A stretch of DNA of 64,000 nt, taken from positions 1 to 64,000 of IMG/VR virus record IMGVR_UViG_3300047282_000191; one strand, 5' to 3'. Positions within the stretch are counted from its first letter, which is position 1; each line of letters starts with the position of its first letter. Position numbers and translations under genes: made by a program. The DNA comes from a virus (taxonomy: Duplodnaviria > Caudoviricetes). Positions 6,216 through 60,147 of the stretch are shown here, in pieces. The notes beneath the pieces were generated by a model. The model ran no database searches and was not told the origin of the DNA. It worked only from the letters and a program-made list of their open reading frames with translations.

Positions 6216-6261
6216 ACTGGACACCTTTCACTTTTAACATGATAAAACTTACATAATATAG

Positions 6262-6300
6262 GTATATTATACCACAAAAATATCCTGCAGTACATAGGCC
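6262..6300 (-). promoter_or_regulatory. Sigma70-like phage promoter for cobS
   Basis: GGCCTATGTACTGCAGGATATTTTTGTGGTATAAT; near-identical copy at 8572-8607. Confidence 0.8.
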
Positions 6301-8532
6301 CTATGCAATAGAGTCTACGAATGCATTCAATAATACGCGATTAACTCGCTTAGCCTTTGTCATCTTTGCAAACGCTGTCTTAATCTTGCCTTTGCTTGCG
6401 CCGTCTTCCACAAGCTCTCCAAACTCATCTTCAACGATGTCCATATATTTTGTACATAAGCCAAAATAACGATCATAGCCAAAGATCTTGTCTTCAATGA
6501 TAGCACGATTCTTAGTCATCTGCGTAGTATATTTTTCTTTATTCTTAATATAGTTTGCAGATCCAACTTCATGTAGCACTTTATTGATCGCTTGATTACG
6601 ATATTGCGAGATAAAGAAACCTAACACGTTGCTGTCAGTAGATTGTTTTAAGAACTTCAATAAGCCTTCAGTCATAGCACTACCTACAGCTGATTCCAAT
6701 TCTAAAGTCTTACCGTCTATTCTAACATAACACTTTCTCGAACGATAATAATATCCATTTGCTACCGTTCTGTGTTTCTCACCTTCCTCTGTCATACGAA
6801 CTTGGAAGTTATCAGATTCGCCATCTGATAAGAACATAGCTGTCATGTTTTCAATATTGTGTTGAAGCTTATACTTTTTGATCATGTCATTAGCAACGAT
6901 GATACATGTATTCAGTGGAGTACTATGAAGTTGATTCCAAGAATTAATATACCATTGTGAAATATTGCCGTCCCATGCTTGAGATAATGTCCACAACATC
7001 TCTTGTGCTTTATTATATTCTGCACGAGTCATACGTGAAGACATTAAATTCAACAAGTTAAATTTTTCAGGAATGATCTCGTTATCTGAGAACTCTTCCC
7101 ATTTTTGATTGCGATCATCTGCGTCGTCACGTACACGAGTTGTAAATGCATACACTTCATATGGTATTTGAACCATGCGACAGAATAGAGTTAAGTTCAG
7201 CAGCTGACGAACGGTTGGTCCTAAATTTTCTTGCATAGAGCCACTAAAGTCGATGAACATCATCATACCGTGATTCTTATAATTTGCAAGCTTTGTAGAT
7301 TTTAAGAAGATGTCTTCTGAATACTTGTATGCGTGCAACTTATTTGTATTGATGATACCGGTTTTTTCTAGTTTAGATCGAGAATACTGGAATGCAGCTT
7401 TACGAAGTTCGAATTCTTTAGCCATATATGCTGCAGCCATCTCAGTCTCGGTTTTAAATTTGCGATACTTATCTTTTAGCAGATCTTTCTGCTCAGCAAT
7501 GCGCGAGATCAAATGATCTTGATCTGGATTTTCAAAGCGAAGGTGCTTTTCCCATTCTGCATAATAATCTTTGTAGTCAATCACTATGTTTGGTTGGCGA
7601 ACCTTATTAATAGTGAAAACATTTTCTTGCATGTCTGAAACTACTAATTCTTTTTCGCGATCTCTAAAAGCTTTGTCAGTCAAAGATTCTGCAGAAGCTG
7701 GTTGTTCATCTTGAGTAGATTTTTCTGATGGTCCTTCAGTAACATCGTCTTTAGATAATTCTTCTTTTTCTCCGTCACGACCTTTACCAGTTTGACCTTT
7801 TGGATCTTCTTCGGTTTCTTCAGGTTGTCCATCAGCAGCACTTTGATCTGGTTTTTCATAGTCATTTTCATCAGTGCTACCATCATCCTCTTGAAGATCA
7901 TCAAGAGATTGTGTGACCATTGTTTGTTTTGATTCTCTTGGAGCAGTCTCTTCTAAAGCTTTTTGATATGCATAGATGTCTTTAGCAAGCTTGACGACTT
8001 CTTCGAATGTTTCAGTCTTAAAAGATGCATTATAAAATCCACGCTCGATAGCATCGAACTGAACTTCTATGTTTGGACCGAGTTTAGATTTAAGATTAAT
8101 TTTATCGATGACGCGAATATTGTCAACATCAATTCCTTGAGATTCTAAGCCAAAGAAATCCTCTGCAGATAATTGTTTGTATGCTTTTTGGAATTGTGCA
8201 CGAAGACCAGGATACTTGTCTTGAACTTTGCGTTCAATACGTACGTCTTCTAACACATTGAGATATGCTTTAGGTGCACCATCAACATCGTCAACAGCAT
8301 CGTGCCAACCAGCTGATGGTGTGTAAAGCGCGTGACCAACTTCGTGACCTGTAAGTAGATCATAAACAGCTTTACCTTTATTTTTCCAAACTGGTAAAGC
8401 TAAGACTCGATTTTTAGGATCGAACCATGCGGTTTTATAAGATCCGTGAATAACGTTGATGTTTTCTTTAGCTAAGAGTTTAGCTAGTGTAGACTGCTGA
8501 TTAAAATTTATTGCTATATTTTCGACTGGCAT
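6301..8532 (-). CDS. CobT-like protein: N-terminal zincin-like domain, acidic linker, VWA domain
   Basis: HEVGHALYT and LNVLEDVRIER; MIDAS DFSGSM, TPLN and LSDGES; adjacent to the MoxR ATPase. Confidence 0.85.
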   Translation of the reverse strand: MPVENIAINFNQQSTLAKLLAKENINVIHGSYKTAWFDPKNRVLALPVWKNKGKAVYDLLTGHEVGHALYTPSAGWHDAVDDVDGAPKAYLNVLEDVRIERKVQDKYPGLRAQFQKAYKQLSAEDFFGLESQGIDVDNIRVIDKINLKSKLGPNIEVQFDAIERGFYNASFKTETFEEVVKLAKDIYAYQKALEETAPRESKQTMVTQSLDDLQEDDGSTDENDYEKPDQSAADGQPEETEEDPKGQTGKGRDGEKEELSKDDVTEGPSEKSTQDEQPASAESLTDKAFRDREKELVVSDMQENVFTINKVRQPNIVIDYKDYYAEWEKHLRFENPDQDHLISRIAEQKDLLKDKYRKFKTETEMAAAYMAKEFELRKAAFQYSRSKLEKTGIINTNKLHAYKYSEDIFLKSTKLANYKNHGMMMFIDFSGSMQENLGPTVRQLLNLTLFCRMVQIPYEVYAFTTRVRDDADDRNQKWEEFSDNEIIPEKFNLLNLMSSRMTRAEYNKAQEMLWTLSQAWDGNISQWYINSWNQLHSTPLNTCIIVANDMIKKYKLQHNIENMTAMFLSDGESDNFQVRMTEEGEKHRTVANGYYYRSRKCYVRIDGKTLELESAVGSAMTEGLLKFLKQSTDSNVLGFFISQYRNQAINKVLHEVGSANYIKNKEKYTTQMTKNRAIIEDKIFGYDRYFGLCTKYMDIVEDEFGELVEDGASKGKIKTAFAKMTKAKRVNRVLLNAFVDSIA

Positions 8533-8624: not shown

Positions 8625-9116
8625 TTAATAGCCTTTTTTTCGCTTAGCGTGTTTTAATGCCAAAGCCCGTTTAAGAGGAGAAGCTTTTTCTAAGAAGTTT
8701 GTACCTTCCATGTGATCGTATTCATGTTGAATAATGCGTGCTGTGATACCGCCAAAGTCTGCAGTAATACGTTCACCTTCTTGATTAGTATATTCAATCT
8801 TTACTGTCTTAGGTCGTTTTAAATTAATAAAAACTCCTGGTTGAGATAGACATCCCTCATCAAATAAAGTCTCTTCTTTAGAGTACTCAACAATCTTTGG
8901 ATCGAAAAAAGTTTCTGAGAAATCATTAAATGTAATACAGAAAATCCTGTTATCAATTCCAACTTGATTTGCTGAAAGACCTATGCCTTTAAAAAATTTA
9001 CATGCGTTAACTAGCATCTCAGCAAATTTCTGCTTATCTTCTACTTCACTATATTCTAATCGCTTAGTTAAAAGCGGGTCGTCGTACGGTATAAGTTTAT
9101 AATTTAATTCCATCAT
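8625..9116 (-). CDS. def: Peptide deformylase
   Basis: GIGLSANQVG, EGCLS and HEYDH motifs all present. Confidence 0.95.
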   Translation of the reverse strand: MMELNYKLIPYDDPLLTKRLEYSEVEDKQKFAEMLVNACKFFKGIGLSANQVGIDNRIFCITFNDFSETFFDPKIVEYSKEETLFDEGCLSQPGVFINLKRPKTVKIEYTNQEGERITADFGGITARIIQHEYDHMEGTNFLEKASPLKRALALKHAKRKKGY

Positions 9117-10828
9117 TTAATCCTTGAAAAATTTCTTTCTTTGACAAATTCAATCTTGTTTCTAAACTTAGAATCAAGCACATCTCCTTTATGCGAGATG
9201 ACAAACACATTAGTATCTTGTACAGACCCAAGAATCTTCATAAGATTGTCGATACCATCTGTATCCAATGATGAATCAAACGTTTCATCTAAGATCAATA
9301 GGTTTGTATTAGCAGAGTTCTTCATCTTTGCGATCTGACGCCAGGTAAACAGAAGGCTTAAGTCAATACGTTGTTTCTCACCTTCAGAGAAGCTTGCATA
9401 TGTAAACTCGTCGCGATATCTAGATTTGATTGTCTCGTTAAAGGATTCATCTAAGTTAAACAATACGAAAAAGTCCAAGATCTGTAGGTATTGATTGACA
9501 AGTTTATTGATGACTGGCAAATATTGCTTAACGATCTTAGTCTTGATACCTGTATCTTTAAGCATTTCACTTGCTATCATATTATAGTTTTGACCATCTA
9601 TATGAGATAGTTTTAATTCTGCTAAAGATTCTTTTTCAATTTGTAGAGCTTTTAGATCTGCCATTGCAGCTCCAACATCTCCTTCGGTTCCTTCTATCTT
9701 TAGGACTTCGGATTCTAACTTATCTATTTGATTTTGTAATGCTGTGATAGATGCATTGTTTGCTACTATATCCATCTGTGCATGTTGGAAAGACTCTACT
9801 TCTTCTAATAGAATCATCTCTTCGCTTTCAATAAGCAAGAGCTCTTCTTCTAACTCTTCAATATGCTTATTAACTTCCCCGATCTTGCTATCGCACTTAT
9901 GCACGTGCTCTTGCCGTGTGTCGGCAGATATTTCTTGAGAACAGGTTGGGCACGCAGTTGATTCCACAAAGAAAGCTCGGTTTTCTTGTAGACTCTTAAT
10001 GGTAGAATTAAACTTATCACCAAATGATAAGAGTTTATTTTTCTTGGTCTCAATCGATTTAAGGGATCTTTGCTTTGAAACCAATTCTGCCAGCCTCTCG
10101 GATAGTCCAGCATTTTTGGATTGTAAATCCTTGATCGCTGTTTGATTGTCCGTGATGGCTTTCTGCTTATCTCGAACCTGATCCTTTGCAAGTGATTCGA
10201 CATCAACAATGTATTTATTTTGAAGTCTGACTTTTTCTGATATGATCTCGAGTTGATTGTTAACATCATTTATTTGTTCCTTAGTTCGTGCTATTTTTTC
10301 TTTTAGAATTTGGTTCATCCTAGAAAAAACCTGAATATCAAGCAACTCTTCTATGATCGTTCTCCGTTGACCTGGAGGCAATTGCATGAATGGAGTAAAT
10401 GATGCAGATCCAATCACGACTACCTGATGGAACGACTTGTGATTTAATTTTAATACGTTTTGCTCTAAGAATGCCTGATAGTCTCTAGAGTTTGCTTCTT
10501 GATTGATAAGATTGCCATTCTGATAAATCTCAAAAGTATTTGGTTTAATGCCTCGTACGATCTTAAATTCTGCAACACCAACTGAGAACTCGACTTCTAC
10601 GACCGCATTCTTATTATTGATTGAATTTAATAGCTGAGGTTTAAGGATATTTCTAAATGGTTTACCGAACAAACCAAACGATAGAGCATCTAACAACGTA
10701 GATTTACCTGCACCATTTTGACCTATGATCAATGTGCTATCATTGCGATTTAATTCAATCTCTGTAAATTTGTCACCAGTACTTAAGAAGTTTTTCCAGC
10801 GTACTGTCTTAAAAATAATTGCTGCCAT
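9113..10828 (-). CDS. gp46: Recombination endonuclease ATPase subunit (SbcC/Rad50-like)
   Basis: WKNFLSTG, GQNGAGKST, CPTC zinc hook, FSEGEKQRIDL, LILDE and ISH motifs. Confidence 0.97.
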   Translation of the reverse strand: MAAIIFKTVRWKNFLSTGDKFTEIELNRNDSTLIIGQNGAGKSTLLDALSFGLFGKPFRNILKPQLLNSINNKNAVVEVEFSVGVAEFKIVRGIKPNTFEIYQNGNLINQEANSRDYQAFLEQNVLKLNHKSFHQVVVIGSASFTPFMQLPPGQRRTIIEELLDIQVFSRMNQILKEKIARTKEQINDVNNQLEIISEKVRLQNKYIVDVESLAKDQVRDKQKAITDNQTAIKDLQSKNAGLSERLAELVSKQRSLKSIETKKNKLLSFGDKFNSTIKSLQENRAFFVESTACPTCSQEISADTRQEHVHKCDSKIGEVNKHIEELEEELLLIESEEMILLEEVESFQHAQMDIVANNASITALQNQIDKLESEVLKIEGTEGDVGAAMADLKALQIEKESLAELKLSHIDGQNYNMIASEMLKDTGIKTKIVKQYLPVINKLVNQYLQILDFFVLFNLDESFNETIKSRYRDEFTYASFSEGEKQRIDLSLLFTWRQIAKMKNSANTNLLILDETFDSSLDTDGIDNLMKILGSVQDTNVFVISHKGDVLDSKFRNKIEFVKERNFSRIK

Positions 10829-11890
10829 TTATACCGTTTCTGTAGTTTGCGCTTCAACATACAAACCGCGCAATAGAGTTTTTAATTTATCTTTATTAGC
10901 TTCAGTCTCTACAGCATCAACGTATGAATCTAATAAGACTTGTGTGTCATCTAGCTTAATCTCTTCGTCTTCTACATTTGCACCTAAGTATTCTGTAAAA
11001 GATTCAGCGATCTTAAGTTCGTGTATTGGTCGTTGTGTAATACGATCGATGAGTCTGTCAAAGCCAAAAAAATCTTGTTTTCTTTCTACGACTACCTTAA
11101 CAAATTGATGATCCATATGGGACACATCTATAGTATTATAATCTGTTTTTTCGTCGTTGTACACCAGTTTTGTATGAAGAGTATGCGGATTACGAACTGG
11201 TGTTATTTCTCTCGTGTTAGTATCAAGCACATGAAAATATTTAGGATCATCACAATCACCCCAAGTAAACTCCATTTGGGAACCAAGATAATAAACATTA
11301 TCCCGACTAGACTTAGTATGAAAGTGGCCAGACAACACCATCTCAAAGCGACTAAACTCCTTTGTTTCCATTCCATGGGGATTCGGAATACCTTTATACA
11401 TTTCAAAACCAGAGAATTCAAAATGACCTCCTACAATATCTGCTGAACATGTCTTGATGAATTCCATAGTGTCAGCATAATTTTCTACGTTGATCCAAGG
11501 GACCAATGCTATTTTCAAACCATCATACTCAACTACTACATTATCCATATAGATCTTAACACAGTCCATATAATGTCCCATGAGTTCTTTAAGAGAACAC
11601 AGTTCATTGGTATTTTTATAGAATACGTCGTGATTACCTGGAATAATATCCATAGTAATATTATATTCTCGTAACTTATCTAAGAAGATGCGACGGTTGT
11701 GTTCGAGCGCTTTAAAGTTAACATATTTTCGGTGCTCGTAATAATCTCCAAGATGTATGATCTTGTCAATTTTGTTTTCTAGTACATATGGGAAAAATAC
11801 ATCTGAGTAGAACTTTTCTTGGTAGTCCATGAAAATATCAGATGAGTTACGTGCACCACAATGGGTGTCGTTTAATATAGCGATCTTCAA
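10829..11890 (-). CDS. gp47: Recombination endonuclease nuclease subunit (SbcD/Mre11-like)
   Basis: NDTHCG, HLGD, PGNHD, GGHFE and SGHFH phosphoesterase motifs. Confidence 0.97.
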   Translation of the reverse strand: MKIAILNDTHCGARNSSDIFMDYQEKFYSDVFFPYVLENKIDKIIHLGDYYEHRKYVNFKALEHNRRIFLDKLREYNITMDIIPGNHDVFYKNTNELCSLKELMGHYMDCVKIYMDNVVVEYDGLKIALVPWINVENYADTMEFIKTCSADIVGGHFEFSGFEMYKGIPNPHGMETKEFSRFEMVLSGHFHTKSSRDNVYYLGSQMEFTWGDCDDPKYFHVLDTNTREITPVRNPHTLHTKLVYNDEKTDYNTIDVSHMDHQFVKVVVERKQDFFGFDRLIDRITQRPIHELKIAESFTEYLGANVEDEEIKLDDTQVLLDSYVDAVETEANKDKLKTLLRGLYVEAQTTETV

Positions 11891-15584: not shown

Positions 15585-15592
15585 TATTTATA
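15585..15592 (-). promoter_or_regulatory. T4-type late promoter
   Basis: TATAAATA upstream of gp3. Confidence 0.75.
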
Positions 15593-23259: not shown

Positions 23260-23267
23260 TATTTATA
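23260..23267 (-). promoter_or_regulatory. T4-type late promoter
   Basis: TATAAATA upstream of gp18. Confidence 0.75.
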
Positions 23268-35516: not shown

Positions 35517-36087
35517 ATACTAAATTAATTCTTTGTCTATCAGACATATTTGGTTCTACTTCGTGTGGTATCCAAGAAGGCCACAAAATAAGATCTCCAT
35601 CTTTCGGAAGAAAAAAGAAATCGCGGGTATATGGTGAAAAATCATTGCAATCATTTAATATATTTGCTGGATTGGTTAAAACTAATCTACCAGTATCAGT
35701 AGCTTGTAAGTAATACACACAAGAAAATATACTACCTTTGTGTGCATGATACACATTTCTAGAATATTTCTCATTAATATTACACCAACTACCTATAGAT
35801 ATTGGATCTTCTTCAGATGGCATACGAATTCTGCTAGTAGGTTGATTTCCATAATACATAAAAGCATCATTAAGTATAGCAGTTAATGCATTATTAAGCC
35901 ACTCACAATCTTTTACCGGATATGAATATCTCCAACAACCTTCATTATTCGTTAATGAGTTGATATCCTTTGCACCAGAAGCTTTCAATGCTAATAAACG
36001 ATCTATTAATTCTTGTCTTTGTTCAGGTGTTCCTACATTAGCATAACTAAATAAATCAGCTCTGAACAGTGTTACCGGTTCTCTCAT
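35479..36087 (-). CDS. Putative 2OG-Fe(II) oxygenase (TIGR02466-like)
   Basis: YHAH..FSCVYYL, GDLILWPSWIPHEVEPN and RINLVFD. Confidence 0.88.
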   Translation of the reverse strand: MREPVTLFRADLFSYANVGTPEQRQELIDRLLALKASGAKDINSLTNNEGCWRYSYPVKDCEWLNNALTAILNDAFMYYGNQPTSRIRMPSEEDPISIGSWCNINEKYSRNVYHAHKGSIFSCVYYLQATDTGRLVLTNPANILNDCNDFSPYTRDFFFLPKDGDLILWPSWIPHEVEPNMSDRQRINLVFDIDVPYVYKPD

Positions 36088-37591
36088 ACCAATCCTTTAA
36101 AAATTCATAATGATTTGGAAATGTATCTATAGCATTATCTATTTCAGATCTTTTACATTTAATAAAATATTCAGCGTACTTTAATTCTTCTTTAGAAAGT
36201 TGGTATTTTTCTGTATCAGCATATGCATCATTGGCATGTAACATACTAAACCAATGTCCGCTATGAAATCCTGAAGTTTTATCATCTAAATAAAAATTTC
36301 TGTGTAATATAGGATAGAATTGACTAAACATCTCTTGCACGTAAATCGGTGCATTTTCAAGTTTTTGGCTTCTAATCTCTTTCCAAAAAGGAGTATCATC
36401 TCTATCGCTATAATGATAATGAGCCCAAACAAATGCAATAATCTCAACGACCATATTAATATATGAAGCATTAAATGCATTCATAAGATTATCATTCCAT
36501 ATACCGCTGTGATGGTTTAAACCGTTTGTTAATGCTTCAACTATCTTAGTAGTAAACGTGATGCCAGTAGCTTCTAATGGTTCTACAAATCCAGCCGATA
36601 GACCAACTGCTATTACATTTTTATATGCTACTTTCTCTGATGCACCGCATCTCATCTTTAAATGACGAGCTTTAGCATCATACTCACCAATACTATCTCT
36701 AAGTTCTTTTTCAGCATCCTCTGCAGAGATATGTTTAGATGAATAGACATATCCATTCCCAATTTGTTTGAAAGTAGGGATAGTCCATCTCCAACCACTG
36801 GTCATAGTAGTAGCTTTTGTATATGGATGACATTCATTATGTGGATCTTTATACTGCGTAGGCATAGCTACAGCACTATCGCACGGCAATATACTAGAAA
36901 TATCCATGAATGGGACTTTAAGTTCTTTATTAATTAACTTAGCTTCAAACCCAGTACAGTCTATAAAAAGATCTGCAGTGTGTTTTCTACCTTGTTCATC
37001 TAACAAGTATTCAATGCCTTCATCAGAAGTTTTTATTTCAGTGATCTTAGTATCAAAGTATGTGATCCTATCTTTAATTAGATCAGCAATAGTATCTAAT
37101 ATATCAAATGCAGAGAAGTGTACAGCTCCCCAATCTTTATATGTTCTTTGCGATAAGTAATGATCAAATCCTTCCAATTTAGGACTTTTATTCGCCATAG
37201 CAAGTCTATAAGCTGGTAACCAATCTCTCCATTCGTTTTTATCTTTATGAATGAAATAATCATGTGCATAAAAATTTGGACCCATAATATGATTTTCTAT
37301 AAAATCATTATCAACGAAGTATGGATCTTTGTTCCAACCAGTTAACAACACACCATATTTGAAAGCCGCATGACATGGTTTCATCCACTGTTTAGGCTCT
37401 AATCCTGCATCATGCAAAAATCTAGATGTAAAAGGTTGTGTTCCCTCTCCAACTCCAATAGGTCCTAGTGCTTTACTTTCTATAAGTGTGATATTACAAG
37501 GAAAATTTAATCGATTCGTTATATAAGCAGCAGTTAACCATCCACTGGTGCCACCACCAAATATCGTTATATTCTTTATCTTCTTAATCAT
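36056..37591 (-). CDS. prnA: Flavin-dependent tryptophan halogenase-like protein
   Basis: GGGTSGW, IGVGEG, FIDCTG, WRWTIP (WxWxIP) and GFVEPLEATG. Confidence 0.9.
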   Translation of the reverse strand: MIKKIKNITIFGGGTSGWLTAAYITNRLNFPCNITLIESKALGPIGVGEGTQPFTSRFLHDAGLEPKQWMKPCHAAFKYGVLLTGWNKDPYFVDNDFIENHIMGPNFYAHDYFIHKDKNEWRDWLPAYRLAMANKSPKLEGFDHYLSQRTYKDWGAVHFSAFDILDTIADLIKDRITYFDTKITEIKTSDEGIEYLLDEQGRKHTADLFIDCTGFEAKLINKELKVPFMDISSILPCDSAVAMPTQYKDPHNECHPYTKATTMTSGWRWTIPTFKQIGNGYVYSSKHISAEDAEKELRDSIGEYDAKARHLKMRCGASEKVAYKNVIAVGLSAGFVEPLEATGITFTTKIVEALTNGLNHHSGIWNDNLMNAFNASYINMVVEIIAFVWAHYHYSDRDDTPFWKEIRSQKLENAPIYVQEMFSQFYPILHRNFYLDDKTSGFHSGHWFSMLHANDAYADTEKYQLSKEELKYAEYFIKCKRSEIDNAIDTFPNHYEFLKDWYERTGNTVQS

Positions 37592-51478: not shown

Positions 51479-51486
51479 TATTTATA
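51479..51486 (-). promoter_or_regulatory. T4-type late promoter
   Basis: TATAAATA overlapping the DUF3050 stop, upstream of the structural gene run. Confidence 0.7.
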
Positions 51487-52237
51487 TGAGTTGCGATTCT
51501 ATGTCATCAAATAATTTAATTCTGGCTTTAATGGCTTTAATTGCGGCTTGTTCAGCCTCGTGAATTAAGAATGGATCATCTTTACAAAAATAATTAACCA
51601 AATGCTCTGACATGGGTCCATGGCTATCTCCATCGACCTGTATATGTCTTTCTAAGTAATAATGAAACTTAGGAGCATCAGTTTCTGATATATCGATCTG
51701 TTTAAGTAACCTTTTAAACATTGCTGGAATTACTGACTCTCTACCATAACAAAATGAAGCTGCGGCACAATGAGGTCCCATGTTTATAGCATCAAAAGTA
51801 GTTTTTACAAAATCCATAGAGGCTTTTGGAACATACTCACATTCTATATGTGAATTGAACTTACTAACGGCATCCAGGTAATTTCTAACGGGCATTGTAT
51901 CAGCACCTACTTCCATCATTGCCTGTAAATATAAGTCAAAATGGCTTATAGATGATTTACCATCTGGAGATATATCAGACTCTTCACAAAGAACTATCTC
52001 ATTGATCATCCTAGCAATATCAGATCTTGTGCCAGGAGTTGGTAGCCATATATTACTAGTTGGCACTACATTGTGTTGTATAGTTTTTAATAGACTCATG
52101 AAATCCCATACCGCAAAGACGTGGTATTTCATGAAGATTCTAAGATCTTCAATAGATTGTATAGTATTAGTTACAAGAAGAGAATGATTCTCAAGCTGAG
52201 ATCGGTGCTCTTGTATCTTCTTTAGGTCTAATTTCAT
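51482..52237 (-). CDS. DUF3050 heme-oxygenase-like (diiron oxidase-type) protein
   Basis: FMKYHVFAVWDFMSLLK, EESD, HFDLYL.AM, FCYGRE..IP.MF and YYLERHIQVDGDSHGP. Confidence 0.85.
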   Translation of the reverse strand: MKLDLKKIQEHRSQLENHSLLVTNTIQSIEDLRIFMKYHVFAVWDFMSLLKTIQHNVVPTSNIWLPTPGTRSDIARMINEIVLCEESDISPDGKSSISHFDLYLQAMMEVGADTMPVRNYLDAVSKFNSHIECEYVPKASMDFVKTTFDAINMGPHCAAASFCYGRESVIPAMFKRLLKQIDISETDAPKFHYYLERHIQVDGDSHGPMSEHLVNYFCKDDPFLIHEAEQAAIKAIKARIKLFDDIESQLI

Positions 52238-53522
52238 TTAATCCAGTTTCTAATAATTCTATAGGTTCATTAAACAATAATGAGAATGCGTTTTGTTGGA
52301 TAGCAGAATACCAAATCTTTTCTACTCTACAATTATGCAAAAATACTTCATCAGGAAACTTAATAGGACAACTAGACTTACAAAGTCTTCTAACTGGACA
52401 TGTATAACAATGCTCGTGTTTTCTATCTAAATCTAATTGTATGATCTTAACACTCTTGATATCTTTGATATGACCTCCTTTAAATTTCTCAGAGGTGTGT
52501 GGGCATAACCTAACTTGTCCCATGATATCCATAGAAAGAATGTCAGCAGCATCAGCTCCACAATTTGAAGTCATTGTGATGGGTATTTGATGTCGAGTTA
52601 AAGCAGCATACTTAAGAACACCAGCATCTCCATCAATGACATTAGAGTTTAAGATACGATCTCCACCCTCTCTCAATTGTTTGATAGCAGCTTTAATATA
52701 GTCATTAACTATCTTTTTAAACTTGGGTAAATCATCGCCTTTGATGACATGCTCAGCTGAGTTTTTAGAGTCTGTATCATCATAAACTCGTGCAGGAATA
52801 TAACTAATCCTTGCATGTTTTAATCCCAATTTATCTTTTATAGCTTTAAAATAATCATTAATTTCAAAGAGATCGAAGTTTGTAGCAGAAACTACAGGAT
52901 TAAAACTATATTGCACTTTAGGACTCATGTCATCAAATTGTTTGATGACATCTACAACACTCTTTCTACCAAAGATATCTTCACCACGAAGTCTTTCATG
53001 TCCTGGACCATCATGTGAAATACCCATCATGACGCTTGCTGTTAAAGTCTTAAAGAAGTCAACATGCTTTTGCCTCAACGGAGATGCGTTTGTAGAAATG
53101 TAGAAGTGACGTCCTGGCCCATCAAGTAACTTCATGATTGGCACCATGTCATTCCAGTATAGAAACGGTTCACCGCCCCAAAGTTCGATACGTTCTAAGT
53201 TTTCTAAGTCAAGATACTTGTTTATGGATTCTACAAATGATTCAAGCCAGAAGTTTTGTGGTCTCTCATCTGGATTACCAATATCTTTTTGCATACAATA
53301 TGTGCATGAATAGTTACATGCATGTCCTAAAAGGATTCGTAATGCAGTTGGCTTATTTGTCTTGTGTTGTACACCAAAGTTATGTTGTACATTTTCAAAG
53401 AATTCATAACCTTCTTTGGGAGGCAAAGATAGGATCTCGCCTTTATCATTATGAAGACTGTTATCCAAGTTTCTATAATAGAATACTTTACCAGATTGTG
53501 TTTGAAATTTACTAAAGCTCAT
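52191..53522 (-). CDS. Radical SAM/SPASM protein
   Basis: CNYSCTYC, WGGEPF and ISHDG; SPASM CG...GQVRLCPH..CYTCPVRRLCKSSCP; likely start MSFSKF by ATGA overlap. Confidence 0.92.
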   Translation of the reverse strand: MSFSKFQTQSGKVFYYRNLDNSLHNDKGEILSLPPKEGYEFFENVQHNFGVQHKTNKPTALRILLGHACNYSCTYCMQKDIGNPDERPQNFWLESFVESINKYLDLENLERIELWGGEPFLYWNDMVPIMKLLDGPGRHFYISTNASPLRQKHVDFFKTLTASVMMGISHDGPGHERLRGEDIFGRKSVVDVIKQFDDMSPKVQYSFNPVVSATNFDLFEINDYFKAIKDKLGLKHARISYIPARVYDDTDSKNSAEHVIKGDDLPKFKKIVNDYIKAAIKQLREGGDRILNSNVIDGDAGVLKYAALTRHQIPITMTSNCGADAADILSMDIMGQVRLCPHTSEKFKGGHIKDIKSVKIIQLDLDRKHEHCYTCPVRRLCKSSCPIKFPDEVFLHNCRVEKIWYSAIQQNAFSLLFNEPIELLETGLNEIRPKEDTRAPISA

Positions 53523-54580
53523 TTTATGCCTATAATTGGTACGATATTGCCGCAATTAGGCTTGACTAAACCAAATTTAGTCTTCGCCCATCCATTTTCT
53601 AATAATTTATAACAGTATTTACTATATGGCGGGATCATCAATCCTGGGATAAAATTAAAATTGCGATTGATATTATAATCAGCAACAAGATTGAAATATT
53701 TTTTAAATTTAGGATTCTTCGTCCTATTCGCCCATTTGCTATATGCTTTTTGTTTACCAAGTAAAAGATCTGTTAAGAATGCTTCTCTATCAAAGCTATC
53801 TTGTACTTGATGAAATGCTTCTTCGTTTAAATCACTTGCGTCATCACTAGAATAATACCAACGATCAAAATAAAGATGCACAGATTCCCTATAAATCTGC
53901 ATTAAACCCTGTTCATCGCTATCGACCCAAGTTGTTTGTTCTTGCGCCCATTCATGTTCTAATACTTCTCTTTGACCTAAGAAATTATGGTGAACAATGT
54001 TATCCATATTATGTTTATTTGCAAGTTCAATATATGGTGTAAATAACTCAGGATATCCATCATCTATAAACTTAAGTTTTAAGATAGGAGACTTATCATT
54101 CAACCGTTCTAATGCATCAATTAATTTCTTTGGATTTACTGATTTTAAAAACGTTGAACTAATGCTAATATTAGCTAAAGATTTAAATTTAATGGTGTCT
54201 AATATTTTTGCTGTTCTAAAAATAGCATTATCTGTAAAACAATATTCTAAGTTATGGGCATTCTCTTGATACCATCTATATGCATCCGGATAGTTTAATT
54301 TCAGAAAAAGCATATCATCGTTAGTACGAACTACTAAGAAATGAGAGAATACCTCTTGCCACATATCTTCATGTTTTTGTGTTATCTTTGGGAAGTATGT
54401 GTTTAAGTTTGGCTTAATACCTTTAAAATTTTTATCGATATAACATATCTTGCAACCAGCAGCGCAATAATATCTTGTACCCAAACTAAAATAGACATCA
54501 TAGTTAACTGGATGTAATGCATCTTGTGTTAACCAGTACTCGTGTAGATTCTCGGCTTTTTCAAAATCTTCAGTTATCAT
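53519..54580 (-). CDS. Divergent radical SAM-like protein
   Basis: CAAGCKIC (CxxxCxxC) near the N-terminus; no recognisable GGEP or SPASM cysteines. Confidence 0.65.
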   Translation of the reverse strand: MITEDFEKAENLHEYWLTQDALHPVNYDVYFSLGTRYYCAAGCKICYIDKNFKGIKPNLNTYFPKITQKHEDMWQEVFSHFLVVRTNDDMLFLKLNYPDAYRWYQENAHNLEYCFTDNAIFRTAKILDTIKFKSLANISISSTFLKSVNPKKLIDALERLNDKSPILKLKFIDDGYPELFTPYIELANKHNMDNIVHHNFLGQREVLEHEWAQEQTTWVDSDEQGLMQIYRESVHLYFDRWYYSSDDASDLNEEAFHQVQDSFDREAFLTDLLLGKQKAYSKWANRTKNPKFKKYFNLVADYNINRNFNFIPGLMIPPYSKYCYKLLENGWAKTKFGLVKPNCGNIVPIIGIK

Positions 54581-55695
54581 ATATTCACCTTGAATTGATT
54601 ATCTATACCAATCCTATGGAACAATGTTTTTTCTTTCTTAAGCTCTGCATTGTGCATTATAGCAGTATCAACGAACTTATAGAAATCTTTACAACTTCCT
54701 TCAGGTTGTTTATCAAATAACTTATAAAGGTATTTTAAACCACAACTTGCTTTTTGTTGACATTTGAGACATGATTCATTAACTCTACCTTCATCGCCTC
54801 GAGGTTGCCAAACTTCGACTCCATCTTGCCATTTGCCTATGCGTGTATTCTCAACTTTATATTCTAAGAAATCAAATTCTGGATACAAATAACCGTCAGG
54901 AGATAATATTAGTTTATTATGTTCTGCAAAATATGCTTTATCAATCTTGTCATAATTACCATCAATGAAAATATTTAATTTCTTAATGTATAATATTTGA
55001 ATAAACTCAAGAAATGCACCAAAGAATTGCGGCAAGTTTATTCGATCTATGATAACATCAAATTTCTCTTCGCCGCGGTGATGTCTAAGGGGGATAATGT
55101 TTACAGTCTTACATCCAGTGTTGTAACACGTATCTACTATAGATTGTATATTTTCAAACGAGAATGCTCGTCTATCTTCAACAGGCAAGACATACTGCCA
55201 TTTCCAATCAAAACAATGCTGATTTAATACTTCAGCCATTTCTATAACATTTAGTTTATCGCGATTCTCTTCTTGGAACATAAAATCATAACTAATAGTT
55301 GCACCAAGTTTACCAGAATACTTTTCAAATATATGCTTGTTCTCTTTAACTAAAGAACCATTGGTTGTCATTCCTACCTTCCAACCATTGCGCTCGGCGA
55401 TAGGCATCAACCATTCTAGGCATTGTTCCATGCGTTTTGCAAATAATAGCGGTTCACCACCATGGAAAGATACCCATTCAACTTTATTTTCTTGTCTTTC
55501 TGCCCACAAGAAAAACTCTTGCAACTCTTGAGTTGTATTGCCGTTTAAGGATTGACCACCAAGAGATTCTATATAACCTCGATCACAATATACGCAATCA
55601 AAGTTGCACTTGTTTCCAAGATAGATGATAAGCATCTTAACATTATTAAGAGGCTTTTCTCTCTTATTGTAAAAGTTTATAGCTGATTGCATCAT
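54577..55695 (-). CDS. Radical SAM protein with partial SPASM domain
   Basis: CNFDCVYC, FHGGEPLL and TTNG; C-terminal CLKCQQKASC..C. Confidence 0.92.
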   Translation of the reverse strand: MMQSAINFYNKREKPLNNVKMLIIYLGNKCNFDCVYCDRGYIESLGGQSLNGNTTQELQEFFLWAERQENKVEWVSFHGGEPLLFAKRMEQCLEWLMPIAERNGWKVGMTTNGSLVKENKHIFEKYSGKLGATISYDFMFQEENRDKLNVIEMAEVLNQHCFDWKWQYVLPVEDRRAFSFENIQSIVDTCYNTGCKTVNIIPLRHHRGEEKFDVIIDRINLPQFFGAFLEFIQILYIKKLNIFIDGNYDKIDKAYFAEHNKLILSPDGYLYPEFDFLEYKVENTRIGKWQDGVEVWQPRGDEGRVNESCLKCQQKASCGLKYLYKLFDKQPEGSCKDFYKFVDTAIMHNAELKKEKTLFHRIGIDNQFKVNI

Positions 55696-57385
55696 CTAAG
55701 GCTCGGTCATCAGAGGCTAATATCAATACGTGAAGTAATGCTAAGAAAAATACTTCTTGCATCTGGTTTTGTACTTTAACTATTCTGCCAGTTGGCATAT
55801 TTCTCTTAGCTAGAATTTGATAATAAAAATCGTCGATACTTACTTGCTTATCTCCGATTAAATGTTCTATAGCATCAAGGAACTCTTCTGGTTTAACTTT
55901 ATCCAGTTCTTTATGCTTACCTTCCATAATCTCTAACCAAAAACCCAACAATCGTTGAGGATCTTTAAACTTATTAACGAGATCATTGTGTACTTTATCG
56001 AGCGATGGATGATACTGATAGACATAGTAGAATAGCATATAGCTGATAGCTTTGAGGAATGTTTGTTCGTACCCTTCAGTGTGCAATGCACGGACTAATG
56101 TATCATATTTAATCTTAAATTGTTTCTTGGCGATATCTTCTTGTAAATCTACATAAAGCTTAACAATCTTTTGACACATGTCATCTGGTCTGAACATACG
56201 CGTACCAGTATCTAAGTTGCCCGCTGGACACTGATAGCATGCATTCTTATAATCACAAGTCTTGCACTGCTCTTCCTCTTCGAACATCTTAGCATATTCT
56301 TTTTGGAAGTGTTTATAACGATCTATATAGATCGTATCATTAAATATATTACCCAATATAGTATCTGATGTTGGCCCACCCTTTTGATTTGTGAAGAAGT
56401 AGCAACCAGAAAAATCTCCACTGGCATCAATCGCTATCATATCAGAACCGATCATACAGTTCTCTTCGCCCTTCTTTCCAACACCCTCACTAAAATGGAT
56501 TTGCAAGTCTTCATACTTATCAAGCGATTTTAATATGTCATTGTGGAGAGTATTCCATTCTTGTTCACTCCATTGAATGAATCCTCTTGCAGAATCTAAT
56601 ATCAATGGATGAACTACTAAACGTCTAATTCCTCGCTTATACAAATTATCAACAAACTCTGCAAAGTAAGGTGCATTCTCTCTGGCAAGAGTACAGCGTA
56701 CAGTGACTCGTTTCTGAAATTTTGGCTCTTCTGGGATTGTTTGGATCTGATCCATGAGCTTGTTTATCTTCTCTTGACCGATCTCTCTATGATCGACCTC
56801 AGCCTTATCAGTATCTAGCGAGATAAGCATATATGTAAAGTCGTGCGAGAAATATTCTTCAACAAGAGGTTGACTTAATAATAACCCATTGGTGACGATA
56901 CCGATAACAGTATTACTCTCTCCACGTGAGTTAAGTTCTAGCTCTTCTTTATTCTTGCGTAGGAAATCTAAGATGATATCTTTGTGGATTAAAGGTTCTC
57001 CGCCAAAGAATTGAAATACTTTCTTTTGATTAGTGTTTGCATCTTTTAAGAATCGATATGCAGTTAAGAGAGACTCATTGGTAAACCTACCAAAGTCTTT
57101 CTTATGCTGCTCATAACAATAAGAACATGATAAATTACATGCATTAGTTAATATAAGATTCATCTGCTTCAATTCACTGAACAGATATTTTGTATTGCTT
57201 ATATTAAGAATAGTCTCTGTTTCTTTAGGAACTACAGAGATTAATTTATTAATCTTATCCAATCCCTTTGGTGTAATAATCTTTTCACTAAGGAATTGAA
57301 ATTGTCCATCAGTCTCAACAACTGAGGCTTTATGATCTTCTTGTCTTTGTCTTTGAGCTTCGGTTTTTAACCAAATAGTCTTCAT
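55664..57385 (-). CDS. Radical SAM/SPASM protein with C-terminal extension
   Basis: CNLSCSYC, FFGGEPL and TNGLLL; SPASM CMIG..GDFSGC..CKTCDYKNACYQCP..C; ATG overlaps the peptide stop (ATGA). Confidence 0.93.
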   Translation of the reverse strand: MKTIWLKTEAQRQRQEDHKASVVETDGQFQFLSEKIITPKGLDKINKLISVVPKETETILNISNTKYLFSELKQMNLILTNACNLSCSYCYEQHKKDFGRFTNESLLTAYRFLKDANTNQKKVFQFFGGEPLIHKDIILDFLRKNKEELELNSRGESNTVIGIVTNGLLLSQPLVEEYFSHDFTYMLISLDTDKAEVDHREIGQEKINKLMDQIQTIPEEPKFQKRVTVRCTLARENAPYFAEFVDNLYKRGIRRLVVHPLILDSARGFIQWSEQEWNTLHNDILKSLDKYEDLQIHFSEGVGKKGEENCMIGSDMIAIDASGDFSGCYFFTNQKGGPTSDTILGNIFNDTIYIDRYKHFQKEYAKMFEEEEQCKTCDYKNACYQCPAGNLDTGTRMFRPDDMCQKIVKLYVDLQEDIAKKQFKIKYDTLVRALHTEGYEQTFLKAISYMLFYYVYQYHPSLDKVHNDLVNKFKDPQRLLGFWLEIMEGKHKELDKVKPEEFLDAIEHLIGDKQVSIDDFYYQILAKRNMPTGRIVKVQNQMQEVFFLALLHVLILASDDRALDDAISYKLLQ

Positions 57386-57588
57386 ACAGTCCCACGGCCA
57401 CAAGCGCAAGCACACTGACATTCGCAGACAGTGTTATAATCATCATAAAATATGTGGCTGTGAGATGCTAGAGATTCTAGCACATCTAGCATTTGCCTAA
57501 AAGTATCAGCTGAAATAGTATCTTCAACTGCCTTTGTACCTGGGACCGTTGATCCAGTATTAAAATCGCTCGTATTTTCTACACCCAT
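57382..57588 (-). CDS. Cys-rich putative precursor/substrate peptide (68 aa, C-terminal CECQCACAC)
   Basis: Hand-verified translation; coupled to the first radical SAM gene. Confidence 0.8.
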   Translation of the reverse strand: MGVENTSDFNTGSTVPGTKAVEDTISADTFRQMLDVLESLASHSHIFYDDYNTVCECQCACACGRGTV

Positions 57589-57589
57589 T

Positions 57590-58549
57590 TTAAACCTCTT
57601 CGTAATGTTTAGATATAGTTATATTATATACTAAACGGTTTCCACTATTAATAAACGTCCAATCCATGGTATTACCAGTATTTAATCGAAGACTGATATA
57701 ACCACTTTGTTGACCTTTTTTAAATCGTGCTTTATATTTATTAGACCCCAGGTTGATGATATCAAAATCGCTTGCAACCTTTATCAATGATGGATCTAAA
57801 TTTTCATCAAGTGCTTGACGAAGGATACCTAATGCACCAACATCAAACTCGAATTCTTCTCCGCGTACTACATACCATCTATCTTCTAATGGATATGCAT
57901 TCTTACTCATCTTTGGCTTTAAGAACTGAGTAGCGAAATCTCCCATATGTGCATCTAGATTTCTAAACCTTGCTTTGTCTGTTTCGAATTCTACTTCATC
58001 ACCCAAAACAATAGTTGACGGGTTAAAAACCACAAGATAGATCGGAGCATTCTTCATCTTGTACGCATAAAACCACGTTATTGTACTGATGTGTTTATTT
58101 TCATCAGTAGTTATGAATTCTTCTTTTTGTATATCATATATGTGACCACCCATCCAAGGATTGCGAGTATAGAATACGCTGTTTTGTATGATATCGTTAT
58201 GAGAACCACCACTCATAAATGTACCAAAGCCAAGTGACTTTTCTTGATTTTTATCAAGCCACTCAATTACAAAGTTTACATCGATGCCTTTAGTGACTGC
58301 TCTATTCATCTCCATCGAAGGTTGCACAAATTGCTTTGTTAATACAAAGTCGTAACCATCTACATGACCTCTATTCTTATTAAATACAATCTTATTGTCC
58401 TTCTTATCGAAATGATATAGATAAGATTGTGGTTCCTTAGGGTTTACCCAAAAACCTTTTATATCAGAATCAGAATTCCATGTTTGGATAGCATCTAACC
58501 ATGGGGTACTTTTTGTTTGACCACATTGAAAAAATACTATAGGTTTCAT
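57590..58549 (-). CDS. Hypothetical protein (319 aa)
   Basis: ORF track; GGAG SD; stop lies 1 nt before the peptide start. Confidence 0.8.
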   Translation of the reverse strand: MKPIVFFQCGQTKSTPWLDAIQTWNSDSDIKGFWVNPKEPQSYLYHFDKKDNKIVFNKNRGHVDGYDFVLTKQFVQPSMEMNRAVTKGIDVNFVIEWLDKNQEKSLGFGTFMSGGSHNDIIQNSVFYTRNPWMGGHIYDIQKEEFITTDENKHISTITWFYAYKMKNAPIYLVVFNPSTIVLGDEVEFETDKARFRNLDAHMGDFATQFLKPKMSKNAYPLEDRWYVVRGEEFEFDVGALGILRQALDENLDPSLIKVASDFDIINLGSNKYKARFKKGQQSGYISLRLNTGNTMDWTFINSGNRLVYNITISKHYEEV

Positions 58550-58558
58550 GACATCTCC

Positions 58559-59785
58559 ATGTTTAATTATAATTACGTACTACCTTACACCAATCACTCA
58601 GATCTTGAACCGTTAATCATCAGTTCCGCTGAGGACTTCCATTTGATTACGAAGTCTGGTCAGCGGATCCTAGATGCCCAATGCGGCAATATTAACTGCA
58701 ACTTGGGTTACTCTCAACATTCAATATCCAATGCTATTTATATGGCATCCAAGTCATTACCGTTCAGTAGACATAATAATGCTATGTTAGCCGAGATTGG
58801 CGCAGAGTATTCTAAGCGTCTATCCTACTATTTCCCGAAGCATGAAAAGTTTTTCTTTGGAAGTTCTGGATCAGATGCCATTGAGACGGCTTTACGTTTG
58901 TCATATATGACACGATTAAAACAAAAGAGCGATAAGAAAAAGATAGTTACGTTTAAGGGATCATACCATGGATCTACATGGTTGACAGGATCCATCAGTG
59001 ATTTGGGAGGTTTAGGACAACACTTACCCCATTGGCCAGATAATTTAAAGTTGTCATCTCCATTTGGTAATGATGGGCAACAAACATTGTACGAGCTTGA
59101 AATGTTAGACTTGTCGGGAGTTAGTTCCATAGTAATAGAACCATTCACATATTTGTCTGGAGTGTTTGAATGTAGTTATACATTTTGGGAAGAACTTGAA
59201 AAGATATGTAAACAAAATGATATCCATCTAATATTAGACGAATCTGCATCGAGTTTCTTTAAGACTGGCAATTCATTCTACTACACATCAATTCCAATAG
59301 AACCAACATTCATAGTACTATCAAAAAGTATTACTGCAGGTTACATGCCCCTCTCAGCCGTAGCTATCCACAATGATATTTGGCATATATTACAAGATGA
59401 ATGGATCGTACATGGTTGGACAAATAGTGGATCAGTACCTGGATTAGCAGCAGCAAATGAAGCATTATTAATTTATGAAGAAAATGATTTTAATAATTGT
59501 GATTTGGTAGAAGATTTTCTATCATGGCTGGTGAGCGAGCATGACATTACCTCAACTAGACAAGTTGGTAACTTCTTTGCTTTTGATATGAAATCTAGGA
59601 AGTGGCGCCGAGATGTTGGCGTGAGGTTTGCTTCAGTAGCACTTAAACACGATCTTCAATTGACTACATTTAAGTATGATGCTATCGCTCGCGGATTGAT
59701 ACCACTAAATGCTACTGATAAATATTTTGATGAATTAAAAGAAAAAGTAAGCCGAGTCGTAGAAGATCGTGACTTACTGCGTTAA
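58559..59785 (+). CDS. Class III PLP-dependent aminotransferase
   Basis: FFGSSGSDAIE, SYHGST, IEP, LILDE..FFKTG, LSKSITAGYMPLSA (PLP Lys) and HGWTNSG; ATG 58559 is likely (track starts at TTG 58517). Confidence 0.9.
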   Translation: MFNYNYVLPYTNHSDLEPLIISSAEDFHLITKSGQRILDAQCGNINCNLGYSQHSISNAIYMASKSLPFSRHNNAMLAEIGAEYSKRLSYYFPKHEKFFFGSSGSDAIETALRLSYMTRLKQKSDKKKIVTFKGSYHGSTWLTGSISDLGGLGQHLPHWPDNLKLSSPFGNDGQQTLYELEMLDLSGVSSIVIEPFTYLSGVFECSYTFWEELEKICKQNDIHLILDESASSFFKTGNSFYYTSIPIEPTFIVLSKSITAGYMPLSAVAIHNDIWHILQDEWIVHGWTNSGSVPGLAAANEALLIYEENDFNNCDLVEDFLSWLVSEHDITSTRQVGNFFAFDMKSRKWRRDVGVRFASVALKHDLQLTTFKYDAIARGLIPLNATDKYFDELKEKVSRVVEDRDLLR

Positions 59786-60147
59786 CCAGTACGATCATCA
59801 ATCGTATGATTATGATTTCCAAGTGTATTAATTTTATTTCTCATGTCATTATGTTTATCTGCAAAGATCTTATCACCTTGAGATATACCAGGTATTGATC
59901 CACCAATACTAGCAGTATTCTTATCTTCATAATAATTTCCCCGATCACCATTATTACCAAATGTTGCTAATTGATATGCATCATCATAGGTATGGTAATG
60001 ACCTAACCAACTATTGATTAAGTTAATTAATGAAGTAATATCAGAAGCATTAATATTATTTCCTGATTGAATATTATTTCTTAGTCCGGCAATTGGACTA
60101 TTATCAGCAAATATATTGGCCTTAGGAGATCTTGAGTCTTGTGCCAT
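59782..60147 (-). CDS. 121-aa protein with two I-x-A...H-x-H-T-x-DD repeats
   Basis: INASDITSLINLINSWLGHYHTYDD and IFADKHNDMRNKINTLGNHNHTIDD. Confidence 0.75.
   Translation of the reverse strand: MAQDSRSPKANIFADNSPIAGLRNNIQSGNNINASDITSLINLINSWLGHYHTYDDAYQLATFGNNGDRGNYYEDKNTASIGGSIPGISQGDKIFADKHNDMRNKINTLGNHNHTIDDRTG

Follow-up and report, generated by a model that had tools for sequence, protein, structure and literature searches.

The tail-fiber gene cluster of a T4-like myovirus contains a cassette in which four radical S-adenosylmethionine (radical SAM) genes, rSAM1 to rSAM4, follow an open reading frame (ORF) for a 68-residue protein that ends in a ladder of alternating cysteines. The DNA analyzed here (the window) comprises 64,000 nt of the 89.7-kb IMG/VR virus record IMGVR_UViG_3300047282_000191. 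The cassette is conserved and phage-specific, and would be a protein-maturation module of the host-recognition (tail-fiber) gene cluster. Because many uncultured phages share this gene set, placed inside tail-fiber genes, its probable role is to modify a part of the host-attachment apparatus. We judge it moderately probable that the modified part is a cysteine-ladder element of that apparatus, matured by radical SAM chemistry and probably by thioether cross-linking.

The cassette is transcribed from the minus strand in the order p121, p319, Cys-ladder ORF, rSAM1, rSAM2, rSAM3, rSAM4 and DUF3050, with an inverted aminotransferase gene between p121 and p319 (Table 1). Read from the DNA, the junctions of the Cys-ladder ORF with rSAM1, of rSAM2 with rSAM3 and of rSAM3 with rSAM4 are ATGA overlaps, while rSAM1 and rSAM2 overlap by 32 nt and rSAM4 and DUF3050 by 47 nt. 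These ATGA and longer overlaps couple translation across the cassette. The Cys-ladder ORF has a GAGG of its own upstream. An initial annotation of this stretch had described a 68-residue Cys-rich ORF followed by four CxxxCxxC genes and DUF3050, joined by ATGA junctions and the 32-nt overlap and set among tail-fiber genes. The ORFs, motifs and DNA bear out this description, to which the 47-nt overlap is an addition, and the fiber setting recurs in RP12 and other annotated phage contigs.

The C-terminus of the Cys-ladder protein (hereafter the peptide) reads CECQCACACGRGTV / VCECQCACACGRGTV. In the family alignment, a variable N-terminus of ~25 residues precedes a conserved helix-HxH-FYDDY block with the consensus (A/D)xTFxQMLxxLxxLxxHxHxFYDDYxT, followed by a (Cys-X)3-5 ladder and an RG(T/S/I)x tail. 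The ladder places 3-5 Cys at alternate positions, and X is mostly E, Q, N, D or A. Residues M33, H43, H45, D49, D50, C59, C61, R65 and G66 are invariant. On this alignment, the peptide divides into a short helical stretch, an HxH 'His-box' like those of p121, and the C-terminal alternating-Cys ladder. Residues 27-68 show zero non-synonymous change among close relatives, except in the comparison with locus L002 (proportion of non-synonymous differences, pN, 0.04), and synonymous divergence among the same relatives reaches ~0.47. For the N-terminal 26 codons, the ratio of non-synonymous to synonymous proportions (pN/pS) is ~0.4-0.9 among close relatives. A profile search of a 5.8-billion-protein collection returned 467 peptide-family clusters at 90% identity, none of them named, on contigs of up to 346 kb. 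The number of clusters and the purifying pattern of residues 27-68 indicate that the ORF is not a chance one. The NCBIfam precursor models gave no match to the peptide at E values up to 0.01. Two candidate readings of its motifs were discarded. Invariance of the Asp-Asp pair as a tracker of rSAM3 and rSAM4 was dropped, as the peptide of L080, a locus with rSAM4 only, reads TDTY; a His-Xaa-Ser system was ruled out, as the motif is HxH rather than HxS repeats and scores low.

The peptide and the enzymes co-occur strictly. We collected 51 distinct rSAM1 sequences from two IMG/VR profile scans and a hidden Markov model (HMM) survey of the fetched loci, and counted co-occurrence in 50 loci with >2.5 kb of upstream DNA and in 35 loci complete on both sides. 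The peptide is found in 50/50 of the former, p121 in 49/50 and p319 in 47/50; rSAM4 is found in 35/35 of the latter, rSAM2 and rSAM3 in 34/35 and DUF3050 in 22/35 (63%). The proposal of the initial annotation that the Cys-rich ORF and the radical SAM genes form one unit therefore holds, and the opposite picture, clusters that usually lack the Cys ORF, is not what the loci present. Its inclusion of DUF3050 stands in so far as the gene follows rSAM4, but the distribution makes DUF3050 an accessory member. The cassette is restricted to phages and all but missing from cellular genomes: among 185,579 prokaryotic genomes scanned, the only hit was a single locus, a 14.8-kb phage-like contig binned with an Alteromonadales metagenome-assembled genome, on which the whole cassette lies between fiber genes. 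The same gene set in the same order is present in the Ralstonia jumbo phage RP12/RP31, where RP12 has a 65-residue Cys-ladder ORF (L001:8889-9086; NC_041911.1 82888-83085) ending in CNCNCNCACTRGSL. This ORF is annotated in neither the GenBank nor the RefSeq records of RP12 and RP31, so it could not be searched for in published virion proteomics. Genes flanking the cassette match tail-fiber PHROGs in the window, and the cassette also lies among fiber genes in RP12, L013, L025, L034, L039, L041 and L045, that is, in every distant locus with annotated flanks. Mosaicism is visible within the cassette: rSAM3 of the window (53519-54580) is 49% identical to its counterpart in L003/L004 (10806-11861), and rSAM1, rSAM2 and rSAM4 are 94-98% identical. 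In the same comparison, the N-terminal 26 codons of the peptide and p319 are far more diverged than the rest of the cassette.

Relatives of rSAM4 outside the cassette point to the ladder as the target. Sixteen IMG/VR loci (L083, L084, L086 (8380-10855), L088, L093, L094, L097, L098, L100, L102, L104, L105, L110, L117, L124 and L127) encode an rSAM4 relative (42-47% identical) with no peptide, p121 or other cassette enzyme. In all 16, the rSAM4 relative has, no more than 2.1 kb away, a gene for a 120-153-residue protein of 31-47% Gly whose N-terminal Cys motif reads LIACGACAC, CACACxC or CQCQCQCQC and is followed by poly-Gly. In L086, the Gly-rich protein is encoded at 10451-10852 and the rSAM4 relative at 8992-10404. 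None of the peptide-bearing loci contains such a protein. In the enzyme tree, the Gly-type enzymes branch at the base, and a single clade holds the peptide-type enzymes, with the rSAM4-only loci nested inside it. Of the four enzymes, rSAM4 is the one that has a Cys-motif protein beside it in every case, including loci that lack the other three. All partners of the rSAM4 clade share the Cys motif and no other feature, and for this reason, our strongest argument, we consider the ladder the likely target and the target a likely part of the fiber tip. Two of the peptide-less loci, L086 and L088, were annotated for neighbors. These include a match to the tail-fiber adhesin family GP38 (Pfam PF05268; 27.1 bits, cut-off 25), tail-fiber-assembly PHROGs, a gp37-like distal fiber and a 2-oxoglutarate oxygenase. 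A 150-residue protein with an EHGHAHIFDH motif is also found among the neighbors of peptide-less rSAM4 relatives. More distant radical SAM relatives (24-29% identical; L192-L208), on unrelated phage contigs, adjoin proteins with (Cys-X)n tails, one of which (L202:90-704) has ~25 alternating Cys (CKCKCQCK...). We do not claim these tailed proteins as fibers because they have no PHROG function.

The N-terminal portion of the peptide is shared with a separate protein of the cassette. In a profile-profile alignment (hhalign, 95.9%, E 6e-9), peptide residues 3-51 are homologous to residues 75-120, the second half, of p121. In p121, H50, H52, D56, H112, H114 and D118 are invariant and Cys is absent. 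A search of PDB sequences with the p121 profile gave only a His-tag artefact, and neither the peptide nor p121 showed a sequence or solved-structure match to fibers. Some p121 homologs are longer: the protein at L034:5476-6834 reaches 452 residues and includes a domain of the Hint type (Pfam Hom_end_hint; 29.5 bits, narrowly below cut-off), and those of L045 and L047 have 294 residues.

Natural variants extend the peptide in several ways. P0129 is a fusion of p121 and the peptide, ending in CACNCNCNCTRGIL. In P0131, the ladder CNCNCNC is followed by a Pro-rich linker and a 170-residue domain, and P0127 has an extra N-terminal domain of 160 residues. P0128 and P0130 contain an insert of ~135 residues inside the ladder, with CF(A/E)(G/E)(D/E)T at its start and, ahead of the next Cys, (K/M)N at its end; in P0130 (L054:9001-9624), it starts CFAGDTLIHT and ends IITKN. 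The only PDB and Pfam similarities of this insert, both weak, are to DnaE inteins, and excising it in silico restores the ladder and a TRG tail in both proteins. We therefore regard the insert, on weak similarity, as mini-intein-like. The variant peptides still adjoin radical SAM genes, but in reduced sets. L055 retains rSAM1 and rSAM2 only. L054 encodes a 758-residue rSAM2-rSAM1 fusion (L054:12104-14380, minus strand) on the strand opposite to the intein-bearing peptide; its contig also encodes a PAS-GGDEF-EAL protein (6029-8488). In L057 and L080, rSAM4 is the only radical SAM enzyme, and the peptides there have no Arg-Gly tail.

All four enzymes contain the CxxxCxxC motif. Beyond it, the seven C-terminal Cys that in the SPASM arrangement serve two auxiliary 4Fe-4S clusters are present in both rSAM1 and rSAM4, rSAM2 shows four additional Cys (Cx2Cx5C...C) and rSAM3 lacks any, in line with the two full sets and one partial set reported by the initial annotation. 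The Pfam Radical_SAM model (PF04055, cut-off 29.5) scores 60 bits for rSAM1, 41 for rSAM2 and 44.5 for rSAM4. The SPASM model PF13186 matches rSAM1 (23.4 bits, cut-off 21.5), and rSAM4 falls just short of TIGR04085 (26.4 vs 27). Scored over 34-39 orthologs per enzyme, the cluster Cys of rSAM1 are invariant in 39/39, those of rSAM2 are likewise invariant, six of the seven SPASM Cys of rSAM4 are invariant in 34/34 with C398 kept in 28/34, and the CxxxCxxC motif of rSAM3 is kept in 33/34. By hhalign, rSAM2 is paralogous to rSAM4 (99.1%) and rSAM1 (97.4%), and rSAM3 is barely related to the neighboring enzymes. rSAM3 has no match in Pfam or NCBIfam and matches phrog_36229. Its AlphaFold2 model (confidence score pLDDT 94.6) has MoaA (Z 11.0), SuiB (10.2), SkfB (10.0) and ChlB (9.9) as top structural matches. 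Judged from this model, rSAM3 is a radical SAM-fold protein, and since the model aligns best to radical SAM enzymes, the count of four radical SAM genes is correct.

To place the enzymes among known families, we compared them to NCBIfam models and solved sequences. For rSAM1, the best NCBIfam match is PapB (115 bits), followed by the CXXX-repeat maturase, the SCIFF maturase and QhpD. For rSAM4, the top two are N_Twi_rSAM (twitch-domain) and viperin, followed by QhpD, PapB and anSME. The nearest solved sequences are CteB for rSAM1 (E 7e-12) and TigE for rSAM4. The families PapB, CXXX-repeat, SCIFF/CteB, QhpD and TigE among these neighbors mature peptides or proteins through thioethers. Against the PapB family model (NF047865, cut-off 340 bits), rSAM1, rSAM2 and rSAM4 score 115, 51 and 49, below family level. 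The same is true of rSAM1 against the SCIFF maturase model (TIGR03974; 76.6 bits vs cut-off 425) and the CrpC-type model (TIGR04463; 53.6 vs 525); against the CXXX-repeat maturase model (TIGR04115), it scores 77.7 bits vs a cut-off of 350. For QhpD (TIGR03906, cut-off 453), rSAM1 and rSAM4 reach E 1e-18 and 1e-13 with scores far below the cut-off. By these comparisons, the enzymes sit with peptide-modifying SPASM enzymes, rather than with the cofactor- or nucleotide-modifying clades that the initial annotation had considered as an alternative, and lie outside every described family.

The cassette is most readily rationalized as radical SAM/SPASM maturation of a peptide or protein tied to the phage host-recognition apparatus, with the chemistry assigned by analogy. 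Gene order and coupling, conservation, strict co-occurrence, paralogy, the natural fusions, the enzyme folds with their cluster motifs and the fiber setting are observed. The heavily crosslinked product of the initial annotation is a proposal. We infer the enzyme-substrate relation, the type of bond, the order of action, the division of labor, whether links form within or between chains, and incorporation into the virion. The radical SAM enzymes would act on the Cys-ladder protein, and the likeliest chemistry is hydrogen abstraction by a SAM-derived radical, leading to thioether links of the sactionine or ranthionine type from the ladder Cys. With its full SPASM domain, rSAM4 most likely targets the ladder itself. 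By analogy with the nearest families and with CrpC, it would abstract a hydrogen from the acceptor carbon and link the ladder Cys as thioethers. rSAM1, rSAM2 and the divergent rSAM3 may add further modifications tied to the conserved Arg-Gly tail, and DUF3050 may provide an optional oxidative step. The product would stay in the infected cell and be built into the fiber tip or aid its assembly; the initial annotation had offered an intracellular or virion-bound product as an alternative, and the evidence favors it. We tentatively extend this proposal to T4-like and jumbo phages: they may cross-link the Cys ladder of their own fiber tips through enzymes of the rSAM4 clade, with up to three more radical SAM enzymes and the di-iron oxidase adding modifications.

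The AlphaFold2 model of p319 (pLDDT 84.7) finds its best fold matches among immunoglobulin (Ig)-like domains (Foldseek, VIA-align); these are generic Ig-like sandwiches with Z of ~7 or less, from which no function follows. The model indicates a beta-rich protein with a C-terminal Ig-like sandwich that is neither a protease nor a protein carrying a recognition element (RRE) for peptides made by ribosomes and modified after translation (RiPPs). A protein atlas search with p319 gave no usable match. Depending on the locus, the p319 family is positioned before or after the peptide. The aminotransferase gene, which sits between p121 and p319 and is the one convincing gene on the plus strand here, occurs only in the closest relatives (L002-L006, L011, L014, L015 and L023), so we consider it a recent insertion rather than a core gene. 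DUF3050 matches PF11251 over residues 16-246 with 262 bits (cut-off 22.2), and its nearest PDB sequence is 9vwb (E 2e-48). MgoB-type DUF3050 has been predicted to be a CADD-like di-iron protein (PMC4520260). The gene occupies other positions in L024 and L045.

The wider genome is that of a T4-like myovirus, with matches to major head, portal and sheath PHROGs and a capsid protein 61-64% identical to its homologs in pelagimyophages and the Methylophilales phage Melnitz. A megablast search of the cassette DNA against GenBank phages returned no match. The T4-type late-promoter-like site TATAAATA occurs 10 times in the window, against 8.4 expected, a total not above chance. All 10 sites lie on the coding (minus) strand, spanning 850-58742, and several are shortly upstream of structural genes, for example at 15585 ahead of the major head gene and at 23260 ahead of the sheath gene. 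The sites are compatible with T4-type late promoters, a reading that is merely suggestive because the total does not exceed chance. Two further genes of the window are unlinked to the cassette: a tryptophan-halogenase-like gene at 36056-37591 (minus strand; phrog_2928, E 2e-97) and a gene at 6301-8532 (minus strand) for a 743-residue protein that matches PHROG 459 ('peptidase') and has no Pfam match.

Table 1. Cassette genes, the neighboring aminotransferase gene and late-promoter-like sites in the window.
Feature	Position	Strand	Description
p121	59782..60147	(-)	121 aa, two helix-HxH-x3-D segments (His-box type)
Class III aminotransferase	58517..59785	(+)	Pfam Aminotran_3, 146 bits; lineage-specific insertion
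p319	57590..58549	(-)	Conserved partner; predicted C-terminal Ig-like beta-sandwich, no enzyme fold
Cys-ladder protein (peptide)	57382..57588	(-)	68 aa
rSAM1	55664..57385	(-)	Radical SAM, full 7-Cys SPASM, ~150-aa C-terminal extension
rSAM2	54577..55695	(-)	Radical SAM, four conserved auxiliary Cys (one auxiliary cluster; partial SPASM or twitch-like)
rSAM3	53519..54580	(-)	Highly divergent radical SAM-fold protein, CxxxCxxC motif only
rSAM4	52191..53522	(-)	Radical SAM, full SPASM domain
DUF3050	51482..52237	(-)	MgoB type, heme-oxygenase-like putative di-iron oxidase; accessory
TATAAATA site	58735..58742	(-)	T4-type late-promoter-like; 186 nt upstream of p319
TATAAATA site, second	51479-51486	(-)	Directly after DUF3050, i.e. 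past the cassette

A short ORF joined by an ATGA overlap to a SPASM maturase, with a repeat-type Cys core at its C-terminus, would ordinarily suggest a classical RiPP. The N-terminal ~50 residues would then be a leader that the maturases recognize and the ladder the core, cut by a host or unlinked protease to act as a free effector at lysis or inside the host. The nearest enzyme families are indeed RiPP maturases, and the weak constraint on the N-terminal 26 residues is often seen at leader ends. However, the presumed leader is a paralog of a separate 121-residue protein, and natural variants carry the ladder internally, ahead of a folded domain, or fuse the module to p121. These observations tell against the leader-plus-core free peptide implied by the term RiPP in the initial annotation. 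Moreover, neither a protease nor an exporter/transporter could be recognized in the annotated genes of the cassette and its flanks in the loci examined, an RRE went undetected, and the cassette is always in fiber modules and all but absent from cellular genomes. We consider a classical RiPP unlikely. Because of the p121 paralogy, the longer natural variants, the reduced radical SAM sets, the Ig-like p319 and the fiber-gene setting without a recognized protease or exporter, the peptide looks more like a small fiber-type protein than a leader-plus-core precursor. Such a protein might also work unmodified, its ladder and HxH box binding a metal or Fe-S cluster in a trimeric fiber, while the enzymes act elsewhere (on p121, another fiber protein, or a sugar or lipid decoration) or use the peptide as a scaffold or cluster carrier. 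In a beta-strand, every second residue points to the same side, an arrangement found at the HxH metal sites of T4 gp12 and gp37. How many Cys the ladder has (3-5) does not follow how many enzymes there are, and p121, which has no Cys, is conserved in the cassette to the same degree as the peptide. Against metal binding alone, the Cys motif is what the four-enzyme peptide, the rSAM4-only peptide and the Gly-rich proteins have in common as partners of the rSAM4 clade, and in the nearest families the substrates of the SPASM enzymes are peptides that contain Cys; we regard an unmodified ladder as rather improbable. It is very improbable, in our view, that the radical SAM enzymes, together with the heme-oxygenase-like oxidase and the aminotransferase, cut out the conserved C-terminal residues and tailor them into a cofactor or small molecule, by analogy with pyrroloquinoline quinone or mycofactocin. 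PqqE and MftC belong to the SPASM enzymes, the fold of PqqC is like that of heme oxygenase, and DUF3050 and the aminotransferase lie in or beside the cassette. Yet the latter is confined to the closest relatives and the former to 63% of loci, ladder length varies, fused and domain-extended forms exist, and the module is set among genes for fibers rather than metabolism.

Several observations also weigh against maturation of a cysteine ladder in the host-recognition apparatus, the reading that we prefer. Every enzyme-family match is far below its curated cut-off, so the type of reaction is not fixed by the matches. PqqD (PF05402) and RRE models found no match in the cassette proteins at E values up to 0.01, a search in which RREs are often too divergent for HMMs. 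The Gly-rich Cys-motif proteins have no family match, and the GP38 match belongs to a neighbor only. The proposed division of labor draws on four reduced loci, L054 and L055 with rSAM1 and rSAM2 only, and L057 and L080 with rSAM4 only. Finally, ORF68-76, which include the fiber-like, p121-like, p319-like and radical SAM homologs, are unlisted among the virion proteins of phiRP31 (PMC5468394). That mass spectrometry survey covered excised gel bands only and reported 32 proteins (PMC5468394, Table S3). Being restricted to gel bands, too shallow, and made with a database that lacked the peptide ORF, it is uninformative about incorporation.

If our interpretation is correct, the tail-fiber tips of many environmental phages are finished by radical SAM enzymes, a new step in virion assembly. 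Up to now, this chemistry has been described for peptides resembling antibiotics and for a small number of cellular proteins. The step would be a previously undescribed enzymatic maturation of the host-recognition apparatus, common to T4-like and jumbo phages. 'Radical SAM cassettes' are mentioned without comment in the host-recognition clusters of pelagimyophages (PMC7029224) and of RP12/RP31 (PMC5468394), and our proposal would explain their presence there; a literature search yielded such passing mentions only and no publication describing the cassette. Enzymologists would gain a small substrate, in which nine residues hold 3-5 Cys, and four enzymes that have co-evolved with it. As the whole cassette is present in a cultured phage, Ralstonia phage RP12/RP31, the question can be tested directly.

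Among known systems, PapB/PapA (freyrasin, NF047865) and CteB/CteA (SCIFF, TIGR03974; PDB 5WGG) feature the same seven-Cys SPASM enzyme beside a small Cys-rich ORF, and PapB and CteB are the best NCBIfam and PDB sequence neighbors of rSAM1. Their substrates PapA and CteA have Cys-X3-Asp motifs or six Cys in 45 residues, whereas a Cys-X ladder is present here. Moreover, those systems use one enzyme, in contrast to the four of the cassette, which is phage-only, lies in fiber modules and showed no RRE, protease or exporter. The CXXX-repeat system (TIGR04115), the second-best NCBIfam match of rSAM1, likewise presents regular Cys repeats to a SPASM enzyme, but with a Cys at every fourth residue rather than every second. 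The SPASM enzyme QhpD (TIGR03906) cross-links Cys to Asp/Glu in a subunit of ~80 residues that is kept in a larger assembly, as we propose for the peptide. For QhpC, in contrast, the leader is cleaved off and both a dedicated protease and an exporter exist; the cassette showed none of these.

On the fiber side, an HxH after a short helix, as in the His-box of T4 gp37 and gp12, is also present in the peptide and p121; here, the likeness extends to the motif, and a trimer or metal site is putative. The Gp38 adhesin family (PF05268) is represented beside the rSAM4 relatives of the peptide-less loci. A cellular counterpart is provided by Methanococcus voltae, in which the SPASM enzyme CrpC installs ranthionine links in the Cys-rich protein CrpA (Dieter et al. 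2026, PMC13692751). The repeats of CrpA are 17 residues long and contain C-x-x-Q/D, as opposed to the Cys-X ladder, and the Crp system is archaeal, cellular and served by one enzyme, whereas the cassette is viral and has four. In both, the Cys-bearing protein has a paralog: CrpB shares the N-terminal part of CrpA (PMC13692751), which parallels the relationship between p121 and the peptide.

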